In this document: positions 12,182 through 33,809 of the stretch, piece by piece
Numbering within the stretch: the stretch's first letter is position 1
How the letters are laid out: each line of letters opens with the position of its first letter
Sequence record: NC_055781.1
Reading direction: 5' to 3' (one strand)
DNA length: 64,000 bases
Source of the DNA: Escherichia phage p000v
Notes under the pieces: model-generated
Seen by the model: only the letters and a program-made list of their open reading frames with translations
The model's database searches: none
Told to the model about the DNA's origin: nothing
Program-made: the position numbers and the translations under genes

Positions 12182-12253
12182 GGCCCTGTAGCTCAATGGG
12201 AGAGCTGTCAGCTCATAACTGATAGGTAGCTGGATCGAAACCAGCCAGGGCCA
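12182..12253 (+). tRNA. tRNA with CAU anticodon (elongator Met or Ile2-type); CCA not encoded
   Basis: Hand-folded cloverleaf: acceptor GGCCCTG/CAGGGCC, D-stem GCTC/GAGC, anticodon stem GTCAG/CTGAT with loop CTCATAA, T-stem GCTGG/CCAGC; 1-72 pair is G-C so not an initiator. Confidence 0.8.
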
Positions 12254-30235: not shown

Positions 30236-30411
30236 CCCGTGAACAAGCTATTAAATTGATGGAACTTATCCGTAACTTACGTGAAGCCGATTCAGATTTG
30301 AATGATGTAGCTTATCATGCAGTAAATGATAACGAAGACTTTTATGAAAAACAGGTTGATGCTTGTCTGAATGATTTGGTGAATTTTGTTGAAACTTTAA
30401 TTGGTGAATAA
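30232..30411 (+). CDS. small acidic protein (59 aa)
   Basis: Not in track (<60 aa); open frame ending 2 nt before next gene. Confidence 0.4.
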   Translation: MTREQAIKLMELIRNLREADSDLNDVAYHAVNDNEDFYEKQVDACLNDLVNFVETLIGE

Positions 30412-30412
30412 T

Positions 30413-30943
30413 ATGAAAATTGTAATTGAAACAACCGAGTTGTTTGGTGATTTATGTATCGAAAAACGTGGTTATGTGTATGTTCTGACACAAGAAGATG
30501 ATTCTGTTACTATTCTTCCTATGGAACTGGACAAGATTTTGAAACTCAATCCGCCTGGCCATGCATCTGTAATTAACATCGATGAAGACCTTCAAGTTCG
30601 TTTTTATCACGGTCTTTATAGTGGGGTTAATATCGAAACAGAAGATGAATGCCTTTCTATTAATAATTGGAAAACATTCGTCACTAAGGTGAAAGAATTA
30701 ATGGAATCTGAAACAGCCAAAAAGGCCAAACTTCAATGGGCTAAATGCCGTAATGCTTTTATTACAAATCAGGACCGCCCTGACTATACAACAGTCCTAG
30801 GTGTTAATCCTTCTTATGAAGATGGCGATGTTGTAGTTATTCGTCAAATTGATGACCTTCGTCAGCATATCGTTACATTAGACAAAGATGAAGCAGTTGC
30901 TCTTAAAGCTTATCTCGATTCTATTATCCCAACTTTGAAATAA
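30413..30943 (+). CDS. hypothetical protein
   Basis: Start at MKIVIET; 176 aa. Confidence 0.6.
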   Translation: MKIVIETTELFGDLCIEKRGYVYVLTQEDDSVTILPMELDKILKLNPPGHASVINIDEDLQVRFYHGLYSGVNIETEDECLSINNWKTFVTKVKELMESETAKKAKLQWAKCRNAFITNQDRPDYTTVLGVNPSYEDGDVVVIRQIDDLRQHIVTLDKDEAVALKAYLDSIIPTLK

Positions 30944-30952
30944 GGAATTATT

Positions 30953-31426
30953 ATGATTATCAATGAAAACTCTTGGCACTTTAAAATTTATGCCGCGTTT
31001 AATAGTACATGGAATCGCCCGAAAACGTTGTGTGCTTATTTTTGGAAAACGTTAATCCCGGTATTGGCTGTTTCAATTATTGGATTTGCGATTTTAGCCG
31101 CAGTCACAATCATTGGCCAGGAAATTTTAACTAAATTCTTTGTTTTTAGCAGTCTATGGACATTAGTTCCAGCCTCAATTGGTGTAGGTGTTTTATTCAT
31201 TGCATTATGTGTTGGTATTTCTATAGTTTTAGTATTAGGCATACCGTGGCTAATCGACTTATACAGAGAGCGGAAGTATTATAAAGAAGTTGAGCTCATT
31301 GCACAAAACCAAGAACGAATTAAAAATGGACTTGAGCCTATTGAACGTAAGAAATCATTAATAGGTGAATACCTTAAAGCTCGTAAAGAAAAAGTCTGTC
31401 CTACTCTTGAATATAAGGCTAAATGA
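30953..31426 (+). CDS. membrane protein
   Basis: Multiple hydrophobic helices; 157 aa. Confidence 0.6.
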   Translation: MIINENSWHFKIYAAFNSTWNRPKTLCAYFWKTLIPVLAVSIIGFAILAAVTIIGQEILTKFFVFSSLWTLVPASIGVGVLFIALCVGISIVLVLGIPWLIDLYRERKYYKEVELIAQNQERIKNGLEPIERKKSLIGEYLKARKEKVCPTLEYKAK

Positions 31427-32412
31427 TGAAAACGATTGTTAAGGCTTACTTTGGTAGCCACCTTTATGGAACGTCTACTCCTGAATCTGACGTCGATTTT
31501 AAAGAAATTTATGTCCCTCATGCTCGTGATATCTTGACCGGTAACGTTAAAGAACACATGAGCAAGAACACGAATAACACATCTTCTAAGAACACAAAAG
31601 ACGACGTGGACCATGAGTTGTATAGTCTCAAATATTTCTTTAAACTAGCTGCGGATGGTGAAACCGTCGCATTAGACATGCTTCACACTCCACCAAGTCT
31701 AGTAGTTAAATCTGATTTGCCTGATGTATGGAAGTATATTCAAGATAACAGGTCTCGTTTCTATACCACTAACATGAAATCTTATTTAGGGTACGTCCGT
31801 AAGCAAGCTTCTAAATACGGTGTCAAGGGTTCTCGACTGGCTGTTCTTCGTCAAGCCCTTAAACGTTCTAATGAATGGGGACAATACTTTGATAACGGTG
31901 CAGTAATTCGTTTATCACATATGAAGAATGTTCTGCCTGTAGGTGAATTTGCTTCGTGGGTTGAAACCGAAAACGAGAAAACAGGTAAGCAAACATTCTA
32001 TAGTCTGTTAGACCGTAAATTCCAAGATACGTTAACTAACAAAGAGTTCAATGCCATCCTGGTTAAACTGGAAGAGAACTACGGTGAACGTGCTCGTAAG
32101 GCGGAAGCCAACGAAGGTATTGACTGGAAAGCATTGAGTCATGCATGTCGTGGTGGACTTCAATTATTAGAAATTTACAAAACAGGCGACCTGGTTTACC
32201 CACTTCAGGATGCTCCATTTATTCTCGATGTTAAGCTTGGTAAACATACGTTTAAAACTGTACAAGAATTCCTAGAAGATATCGTTGACCAAGTTGAACA
32301 TGCGTCAGAACAAGCTGCCAAGAACGGTATGCAACAAAAAGTAGATATGAGTTTCTGGGATGACTTCCTTGAACAAGTCTATCTCGAAAATCATAATTCT
32401 TACTATAAATAA
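31423..32412 (+). CDS. nucleotidyltransferase-fold protein (GS...DVD motif)
   Basis: N-terminal FGSHLYGTSTPESDVDF fits pol-beta-like NTase signature; 329 aa. Confidence 0.6.
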   Translation: MMKTIVKAYFGSHLYGTSTPESDVDFKEIYVPHARDILTGNVKEHMSKNTNNTSSKNTKDDVDHELYSLKYFFKLAADGETVALDMLHTPPSLVVKSDLPDVWKYIQDNRSRFYTTNMKSYLGYVRKQASKYGVKGSRLAVLRQALKRSNEWGQYFDNGAVIRLSHMKNVLPVGEFASWVETENEKTGKQTFYSLLDRKFQDTLTNKEFNAILVKLEENYGERARKAEANEGIDWKALSHACRGGLQLLEIYKTGDLVYPLQDAPFILDVKLGKHTFKTVQEFLEDIVDQVEHASEQAAKNGMQQKVDMSFWDDFLEQVYLENHNSYYK

Positions 32413-32443: not shown

Positions 32444-32710
32444 ATGAAAAAATTAGTAATTGGTTTATTCGCAGTAATGATGACATTCTCTGTTGGTGCT
32501 ACCACGGGTGCAGGAGCTGGTGGTGGCCAGTCTTCTGCGCCTTCTAACGGTTCGGTAAATGCATCACATTCTCAGGGTATTGAGAACATTAAATCAAGCT
32601 ATATTAATAGCACGGCCGGACAAGCAACTGAAGCATGGTCAAAGGGTCGAGTAGTTACTCGCTCTGTATTCTGTGATATGCCTAATTATGTTGCTAAGTG
32701 TGATAAGTAA
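32444..32710 (+). CDS. secreted small protein
   Basis: Signal peptide MKKLVIGLFAVMMTFSVGA; Gly/Ser-rich; two Cys near C-terminus. Confidence 0.6.
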   Translation: MKKLVIGLFAVMMTFSVGATTGAGAGGGQSSAPSNGSVNASHSQGIENIKSSYINSTAGQATEAWSKGRVVTRSVFCDMPNYVAKCDK

Positions 32711-32761
32711 ATGTGGGGACCTTCGGGTCCCTTTAGGGGGTTAAAATATTTTTAAAAAGTA

Positions 32762-32790
32762 GTGTACATGCTTTTAGGATATGATACTAT
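32762..32790 (+). promoter_or_regulatory. early-type promoter (GTGTAC / TACTAT)
   Basis: 17-bp spacer; follows terminator-like hairpin. Confidence 0.5.
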
Positions 32791-32828
32791 AGACCTATCG
32801 AAACGAAATGAGTAAATTGGAGAATAAA

Positions 32829-33809
32829 ATGTTCAACGTTCAAATCAAAAAAGGTATCTATCGTAATAACGAAATCTCTGGTTCTTATGTTGCCACAAAG
32901 ACCTGGTTCCCGGCAAAGCTTAATCCTGAATGTTCCCACTTAGGTGACGGTAAAATTTTCGTTATGATTGATGGTTCTGAACGTGGAGTATGGGTCTTCA
33001 AATCAGACATCGTAATGGAAGGAGTTGAGACATCACCAGTTGCAGTTGTTGAAAGCACTGAAGATATGAAAACTCGTATCAACAAACGCTTTAAAGTAAT
33101 GAACATGATGACGAATGGCATTATTGATGGCAAAATTCGTTCACTCATTATTTCAGGTGCAGCTGGTATTGGTAAGACGTATTCTCTGGATAAAGCACTT
33201 AATAATGCTAATGATAATGGTTTCATCAAATACAAAAGCATTAATGGTAAAATCTCCGGTATTGGCCTTTACGAACAACTTTGGCTCAACCGTGATGCAG
33301 ACAGCGTTCTCTTAATCGATGACGTTGACGTATTCTCAGATATGGACATCCTGAACCTTCTTAAAGCCGCATTAGATACCGGCGATAAACGCAAAGTTTG
33401 CTGGAGCACTGCATCATCTTATCTTGATGATAAGGGTATCGATAAAGAATTTGAGTTTGAAGGTACTATCGTTTTCATTACAAACGTTGATATTGATAAA
33501 GAGTTAGAACGCGGTTCGAAACTTGCTCCGCACCTTCAAGCTCTAGTATCTCGTTCAGTGTATCTCGACCTTGGAGTACACTCTAATGAAGAGATTATGG
33601 TTCGAGTTGAAGATGTAATATTATCTACTGACATGATGCAGAAACGTGGCTTGACTGATGCTGAAACGTACAAAGCATTGTCCTGGATGAAGGCTAACGT
33701 ATCTCGTCTTCGCAATGTATCATTACGTACGGCTCTTTATGTAGCAGATTTTATTTCAACTGATAAAGATGGTTGGGAAGAAATCTCGGAAGTTACTTTA
33801 CTGAAATAA
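32829..33809 (+). CDS. AAA+ ATPase (initiator/DnaC-IstB-like motif pattern)
   Basis: Walker A GAAGIGKT, Walker B VLLIDDVD, sensor-1-like IVFITN; start at second ATG with GGAGA SD. Confidence 0.65.
   Translation: MFNVQIKKGIYRNNEISGSYVATKTWFPAKLNPECSHLGDGKIFVMIDGSERGVWVFKSDIVMEGVETSPVAVVESTEDMKTRINKRFKVMNMMTNGIIDGKIRSLIISGAAGIGKTYSLDKALNNANDNGFIKYKSINGKISGIGLYEQLWLNRDADSVLLIDDVDVFSDMDILNLLKAALDTGDKRKVCWSTASSYLDDKGIDKEFEFEGTIVFITNVDIDKELERGSKLAPHLQALVSRSVYLDLGVHSNEEIMVRVEDVILSTDMMQKRGLTDAETYKALSWMKANVSRLRNVSLRTALYVADFISTDKDGWEEISEVTLLK

Follow-up and report, generated by a model that had tools for sequence, protein, structure and literature searches.

The open reading frame (ORF) at 31423..32412 on the plus strand of a 64,000-nucleotide stretch of Escherichia phage p000v (NC_055781.1; this whole stretch is termed the window below) encodes a nucleotidyltransferase (NTase), the counterpart of phage T4 NrdC.11, which belongs to a distinct "long" subfamily of the RlaP family rather than a canonical RlaP, a distinction that is new here. 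Cellular relatives of this protein recur in RNA repair operons, in several cases directly next to a gene for a canonical RlaP, and both this link of the subfamily to RNA repair and the long/canonical pairing are likewise reported here for the first time. As the explanation that best joins these observations we favor, with modest confidence, a long RlaP that would extend the 3'-OH of broken RNAs by one or two nucleotides as a step in counterdefense tRNA repair.

Family membership and catalytic core

The ORF is complete (329 amino acids [aa] and a stop codon). We consider it the Mosigvirus ortholog of T4 NrdC.11 because it is 68.8% identical to the annotated nrdC.11 product of phage Bp7 and 78.6% identical to that of RB10 and because the 100% identical database proteins carry the name "nucleotidyltransferase." The 3-kb region around it is 96-97% identical to many Mosigvirus records, and the window comes from a T4-like phage of that genus. 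T4 NrdC.11 itself (38.9 kDa, encoded between nrdC and mobD) occupies the same position, 3' of tk/rI and 5' of nrdC.10, and agrees with the p000v protein in length and in all of the conserved residues; identity to the Tequatrovirus copies, such as that of RB10, is 78-79%. The translation begins MMKTIVKAYFGSHLYGTSTPESDVDFKEIYVP, with a second in-frame ATG at 31426; an AAGG precedes both ATGs (31423 and 31426), and database copies exist as both 328-aa and 329-aa versions.

That the protein has an NTase fold and belongs to the RlaP family was already known, and the gene codes for a widely annotated phage protein. A match of nrdC.11 orthologs to the nucleotidyltransferase domain COG3541 was noted in 2006 (PMC1524935), and T4 NrdC.11 has been placed in PF10127, in cluster 5 of a sequence similarity network (SSN), and called "of unknown function" (PMC12776372, December 2025 preprint). 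In our searches, the Pfam profile PF10127 (RlaP, "RNA repair pathway DNA polymerase beta family") matched the protein with an E value of 7.6e-13 (49.1 bits against a cut-off of 23), only over residues 7-152 and profile positions 23-148 of 249, and PHROG 388 ("nucleotidyltransferase") matched it end to end (E=4.7e-126). The features of the protein on which the following analysis rests are listed below with their coordinates in the window.

31423..31722 (+), N-terminal alpha/beta nucleotidyltransferase core, residues ~1-100, with predicted strands at 3-9, 24-31, 45-49, 62-68, and 94-96
31453..31497 (+), catalytic signature G11-S12...D23-V24-D25 (hG[GS] x10 DxD), read in the translation
31609..31611 (+), D63, candidate third metal-binding carboxylate, in predicted strand 62-68
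31951..32025 (+), three-stranded beta-meander, residues 177-201, with AlphaFold DSSP strands at 177-184, 188-195, and 198-201
32122..32151 (+), subfamily signature D234-W-K236-A-L-S-H240-A-C-R243, at the start of helix 235-254

An earlier note, made from the window alone, had pointed to a G-S, ~10 residues, D-V-D arrangement in the N terminus of this protein, and the translation bears it out, with exactly ten residues between G11-S12 and D23-V24-D25. The Pfam match, together with conservation of the catalytic residues at 97% or above across 143 diverse representatives, indicates that the motif is not a chance occurrence. In this set, G11-S12, D23, and D25 are kept in 99-100% of the sequences and D63 is kept in 97%, all of them being invariant in alignment A2. 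D63 may furnish the third metal ligand because of the three-carboxylate rule of the Pol-beta superfamily. The full set of residues conserved at 97% or above comprises G11, S12, D23, D25, D63, D85, R223, K236, H240, and R243. K236, H240, and R243, which are retained in 99-100% of the sequences, belong to a C-terminal signature that retrieved 168 relatives when used as a genome search pattern (DWKAx[SAM]HAxR). We infer that this D234-R243 signature probably forms the face by which the C-terminal helical domain binds nucleoside triphosphates (NTPs) or RNA.

The initial homolog search returned near-identical proteins only (98-100%), and the diversity for modeling came from a search seeded with the homolog from Vibrio phage ValKK3. 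The AlphaFold2 model built on the resulting 124-sequence alignment is confident (predicted local distance difference test [pLDDT] score, 91.2; predicted template modeling [pTM] score, 0.77) and shows a five-stranded alpha/beta core extending to residue ~100, followed by helices, the beta-meander at 177-201, and a C-terminal helical bundle. The top matches of the model among PDB structures are all NTases of the Pol-beta fold, and the alpha/beta core, which itself has this fold, resembles those of solved NTases; a sequence search of the PDB gave a best E value of 0.41, to unrelated proteins. The NTase call of the earlier note thus gains support from both the model and its exclusively NTase matches, and no other fold was encountered. 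Its description of the rest of the protein as a 250-residue helical region holds only roughly: the chain is mostly helical after residue ~100, where the core ends, but includes the beta-meander. The closest solved structures are those of the kanamycin nucleotidyltransferase ANT(4'), the minimal NTase of NTase/HEPN pairs, and Hailong HalB, which share the Pol-beta core and a helical bundle with NrdC.11; the likeness is at the level of the fold only (7-17% identity, with low TM-scores), and the substrates and genomic contexts differ. The conserved catalytic residues, combined with the family and fold, suggest that NrdC.11 is catalytically intact, and it is very probably an active NTase of the RlaP family.

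The relationship to canonical RlaPs, that is, those of Pseudomonas fluorescens and P. aeruginosa and the phiKZ gp237 type, is one of a shared plan with C-terminal parts that show no detectable similarity. Both forms combine an NTase domain with a C-terminal helical domain, have in common the N-terminal core (GS...DxD...D, followed by helices), and occur in repair operons with RtcB and Pnkp/Hen1. However, NrdC.11 is ~60-70 residues longer than canonical RlaPs, and its C-terminal ~200 residues include the beta-meander, which lies within a region (~135-225) left unaligned by both the Pfam RlaP profile and our canonical-RlaP profile. For the latter, canonical RlaPs from our own loci (175-252 bits in Pfam) served as proxies for PfRlaP and PaRlaP. 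When aligned with hhalign, the NrdC.11-clade and canonical-RlaP profiles matched over the N-terminal 137 columns only (probability, 96.7%; E=3.6e-10), and the Pfam and hhalign alignments end at residues ~131-152 of NrdC.11. A profile-profile comparison of the C-terminal halves alone placed the DWKAxSHAxR helix onto the canonical vKxYcYaLR motif with an E value of 0.37; as this motif-level alignment is not significant, we claim no homology of the C-terminal domains. The two forms further belong to different PHROGs (388 for NrdC.11 and 14344 for the canonical form) and have different phage ranges, with NrdC.11 in T4-like phages (1550 records) and canonical RlaP in phiKZ-like jumbo phages and other phages (80 records).

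RNA repair operons of the cellular relatives

A survey of cellular genomes that took one genome per prokaryotic species recovered 80 loci with full-length relatives (33-52% identity). A gene for RtcB, Pnkp (kinase-phosphatase-ligase), Hen1, or Ro/TROVE lies within 6 kb in 15 of them; almost all of the repair genes in these 15 loci share the strand of the NTase gene, many adjoin it directly, and their identities were confirmed by Pfam (E values of 1e-37 to 1e-172). A Nitrosospira locus, L032, comprises seven genes, coding for Ro, RtcB, RtcA, the long NTase, a canonical RlaP, Hen1, and Pnkp. It also exemplifies a second recurrent arrangement, seen in 10 of the 80 loci, in which a canonical RlaP (~255-277 aa) is encoded directly 3' of the long form (~320 aa).

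L032:6004-7746, tandem long/canonical PF10127 pair
L011, L027, L043, L054, L057, L062, L070, L076, and L080, loci with the same tandem pair

Three canonical RlaPs scanned from the tandem loci scored 175-252 bits in Pfam. Given that the long and canonical forms are recurrently paired, they are presumably neither redundant nor interchangeable copies, and the tandem pairing suggests that the two NTases have different jobs or cooperate.

Distribution in phages and partner enzymes

Searches with tblastn located NrdC.11 in 1550 of 50,697 phage records, with coverage of at least 80% in 1444. Nearly all of the 1550 records are of T4-like phages with Escherichia, Klebsiella, Shigella, Aeromonas, Acinetobacter, Vibrio, and related hosts. 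An exhaustive HMMER search returned 3248 cluster representatives at E values of up to 1e-3 and 752 at E values of up to 1e-30. Many GenBank phage records call the NrdC.11 and NrdC.10 orthologs "thioredoxin"; neither protein has a match to a thioredoxin family, and the label looks like an error spread from the gene name nrdC.

Some phage loci also show a link to RNA repair genes. A homolog of Rnl1, Pnk, or Rnl2 is encoded within 6 kb in 5 of 79 viral loci. On one uncultivated viral contig (L163:2856-6933), an HD phosphohydrolase-P-loop kinase fusion, an Rnl1-type ligase, and an NrdC.11-like NTase are encoded in this order in a compact cassette, and a further locus, L165, repeats this arrangement; the cassette would serve the phage as a cis-encoded module to "heal, fill and seal." In the lineage of p000v, the candidate partners lie elsewhere in the genome: Mosigvirus O157tp3, with 96.7% identity across the 3-kb region, has genes for Rnl1, polynucleotide kinase, and Rnl2 outside the NrdC.11 neighborhood. 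Grouped by the first word of the organism name, the records with NrdC.11 and those with Rnl1 are distributed as follows.

Escherichia, NrdC.11 in 628 records, Rnl1 in 635
Klebsiella, NrdC.11 in 293 records, Rnl1 in 287
Shigella, NrdC.11 in 83 records, Rnl1 in 83
Aeromonas, NrdC.11 in 75 records, Rnl1 in 77
Acinetobacter, NrdC.11 in 69 records, Rnl1 in 69
Enterobacter, NrdC.11 in 56 records, Rnl1 in 56

The T4-like portal protein matched 382 Synechococcus and 62 "Cyanophage" records (444), and neither name appears in the top-10 name lists for NrdC.11, Rnl1, or Pnk. These lists agree with the published absence of Pnk and Rnl1 from T4-like cyanophages (PMC3458546). The phyletic likeness of NrdC.11 to Rnl1 is supportive but not specific.

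Proposed role in tRNA repair

The name RlaP reflects a linkage to RNA ligases, and the protein was predicted to replace, ahead of ligation, nucleotides that RNA ends have lost, as summarized in PMC7824862. Two Pseudomonas RlaPs have since been found to add one or two nucleoside monophosphates to RNA 3'-OH ends, with a preference for Mn2+; they favor the 5' half of a cleaved-tRNA mimic and do not use DNA or protein as a substrate (PMC12776372). In the same study, RlaP raised the aminoacylation of a repaired tRNA that was short of one anticodon-loop nucleotide, and the 3'-OH product was noted to suit ligases that use a 5'-phosphate (PMC12776372).

The family membership of NrdC.11 and the genomic link of its subfamily to RNA repair are observations; the remaining steps of the mechanism we infer. 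Through its DxD...D metal site, the enzyme would extend the 3'-OH of broken RNAs by one or two nucleotides taken from NTPs, and RNA 3' ends are its probable substrate. The main substrates would be the 5' halves of tRNAs in which host defense nucleases, such as the wobble-excising RloC, have cut and trimmed the anticodon loop. The phage polynucleotide kinase/phosphatase would first strip the 2',3'-cyclic phosphate, NrdC.11 would then refill the missing nucleotide or nucleotides, and RNA ligase 1 would finally seal the break. The product of NrdC.11 addition would carry a 3'-OH and hence suit 5'-phosphate ligases such as Rnl1. With the genes for these partners located elsewhere in the genome, NrdC.11 would act in trans, as an accessory counterdefense step. 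The proposal shares its purpose with the tRNA repair by which T4 Pnkp and Rnl1 counter PrrC, whose enzymes are present in the lineage and have a similar spread across phage genera; unlike that pathway, the proposed NrdC.11 step would be required only for lesions in which nucleotides are lost. Counterdefense tRNA repair as the biological role is a serious candidate, which we hold tentatively.

The gene is dispensable on laboratory hosts, as judged from a viable T4 mutant (OL964745.1; clone T4_7t1, L166) that lacks nrdC.11 and mobD and has only the last ~40 codons of the former left, fused to the MobD.1 ORF. The nrdC.11-mobD.3 interval is also among the large fragments lost from genome-reduced T4 (PMC9825161).

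Several observations weigh against a role in tRNA repair. Among the cellular loci, 65 of 80 have no repair gene within 6 kb; genes for an RNA ligase, a kinase, RtcB, or Hen1 are absent from the 64-kb window; and nrdC.11 is unlinked to pseT and rnlA in T4-like phages. The characterized RlaPs belong to another subfamily, with which only the N-terminal ~130 residues of NrdC.11 align, and the C-terminal ~200 residues, which have no significant similarity to the canonical form (E=0.37), probably decide the substrate. Since the characterized RlaPs pick nucleotides almost at random, accurate repair by such an enzyme would be inefficient. The phyletic match to Rnl1 is unspecific, as cyanophages likewise lack many of the accessory genes that enterobacterial T4-like phages carry, and no phenotype has been reported for deletion of nrdC.11.

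Alternative functions

The same catalytic core could serve other reactions, none of which has family-level support. Assignments to the MntA antitoxin, CD-NTase/HalB, CCA-adding, and aminoglycoside-NTase families were each rejected on the basis of the Pfam, NCBIfam, and PADLOC results.

The first alternative has NrdC.11 acting in tRNA 3'-end (CCA) repair or maturation, either on acceptor ends trimmed or modified by host toxins or on phage tRNA precursors, rather than on anticodon breaks. CCA-adding enzymes have the same NTase fold, and the substrates that the characterized RlaPs label further include full-length tRNAs as well as a split tRNA's 3' half, with little discrimination among NTPs (PMC12776372). 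The phage has at least one tRNA gene, the only one in the window:

12182-12253 (+), tRNA-Met (CAT anticodon)

However, PfRlaP favored the cleaved tRNA's 5' half over the 3' acceptor end (PMC12776372), and no CCA-adding or poly(A) polymerase family is found among the Pfam matches at E values of up to 1. The genomic partners of the subfamily, namely, ligases, kinase-phosphatases, RtcA, and Ro, are those of the healing of internal breaks, with no recurring CCA-related genes, and we consider an acceptor-end function improbable.

A function in attack rather than repair would entail the same predicted chemistry, the untemplated addition of nucleotides to an RNA 3'-OH, directed in the manner of MenT or AbiEii at the 3' ends of host tRNAs or mRNAs, which would be blocked or destabilized for shut-off. 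The location of the gene in the tk-nrdC block of plus-strand genes of accessory or unknown function would suit such host-directed tailing. The bacterial RNA repair operons and the phage ligase/kinase cassettes point instead to repair, and there is neither a match to a PADLOC defense or toxin model at E values of up to 0.1 nor a conserved antitoxin-like partner, so that we regard host-directed tailing as quite improbable.

Nucleotidylylation of a protein or small molecule, such as an MntA-like AMPylation of a HEPN toxin or the modification of a metabolite or antibiotic in the manner of kanamycin nucleotidyltransferase, is very improbable in light of several results. The MntA model (NCBIfam NF047752) reaches 13.3 bits, where the cut-off is 60, and aligns to residues 9-26 only, and no HEPN toxin gene adjoins the NTase gene, whose neighbors code for a membrane protein and a small secreted protein. 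Escherichia coli proteins were not substrates of RlaP (PMC12776372), and the likeness to kanamycin nucleotidyltransferase is confined to the fold, at 7-11% identity. The synthesis or capping of oligonucleotide second messengers, as by the cGAS/DncV-like nucleotidyltransferases (CD-NTases) or Hailong HalB, is the least probable function of all, as the similarity to HalB extends over no more than 116 residues of the shared NTase core at 17% identity, PADLOC again gives no match at E values of up to 0.1, there is no conserved effector or receptor partner, and the family context is one of RNA repair.

Neighboring genes

The NrdC.11 gene lies downstream of those for thymidine kinase (tk) and rI, in a codirectional plus-strand block that extends from tk to nrdC and whose genes are of unknown or accessory function. 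Its immediate surroundings in the window are as follows.

30401-30943 (+), ORF matching the T4 y05I-like putative transcription factor domains PF24449 (E=1e-40) and PF24448 (E=1e-19)
30953..31426 (+), upstream membrane-protein gene, PHROG 944, from the PHROG match and sequence
32444-32710 (+), 88-aa ORF with a signal-peptide-like N terminus, PHROG 2243, between NrdC.11 and NrdC.10
32715-32800, region with a perfect GC-rich hairpin with a UUCG loop (GGGGACCTTCGGGTCCC), 3' of the small secreted ORF
32808-33809 (+), NrdC.10 ortholog, a 333-aa P-loop (AAA-like) ATPase, PHROG 1250 (unknown function), with subthreshold Pfam matches only

The TGA of the upstream gene overlaps the first ATG of NrdC.11 (ATGA), and this stop/start overlap suggests that the two are probably cotranslated. 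The product of the upstream gene is a 157-aa multipass membrane protein, a homolog of which is encoded within ~2 kb of the NrdC.11 ortholog, almost always upstream, in 35 of the 79 viral loci. In T4 and RB10, the place directly upstream of nrdC.11 is taken by the gene for the mobD homing endonuclease, which p000v does not have at this position. The other difference from T4 is the additional small secreted ORF before nrdC.10; its homologs occur in only 2 of the 79 related viral loci, which marks it as a locally variable insert. The earlier note had spoken of a hyperplastic region, a description that fits these variable flanks but not the gene itself, given its presence in 1550 phage records.

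The hairpin is followed by TGCTTTTA...TATAGA, which resembles a MotA-dependent middle promoter of T4 and lies just 5' of NrdC.10. Together, the hairpin and promoter-like sequence suggest that NrdC.11 and NrdC.10 may be separate transcription units; a promoter/terminator scan found such sites to be no more frequent than in shuffled sequence. NrdC.10 is downstream of NrdC.11 in 28 of the 79 viral loci, all from enterobacterial T4-like phages. We rejected it as a functional partner because of this limited synteny and the intervening hairpin and promoter-like sequence, and the neighboring genes as a whole gave no evidence of working with the NTase.

Implications

A bolder form of the proposal is that long RlaPs are the missing third enzyme of T4 tRNA repair, restoring the wobble nucleotide in the face of RloC-type "repair-proof" nucleases, and that the long and canonical forms paired in bacteria divide the work between them, for example, through a choice of different RNA ends or different nucleotides or as parts of a heteromer. 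We regard this as possible though, on balance, doubtful. If the proposed role holds, the textbook two-enzyme pathway of T4 tRNA repair, Pnkp plus Rnl1, would gain a third, nucleotide-restoring component, and the long-held view that wobble-nucleotide excision by RloC is irreversible by phages would be weakened. As the gene is present in ~1500 sequenced T4-like phages, many of which are therapeutic candidates, a role against tRNA-targeting defenses would bear on the host range of these phages.

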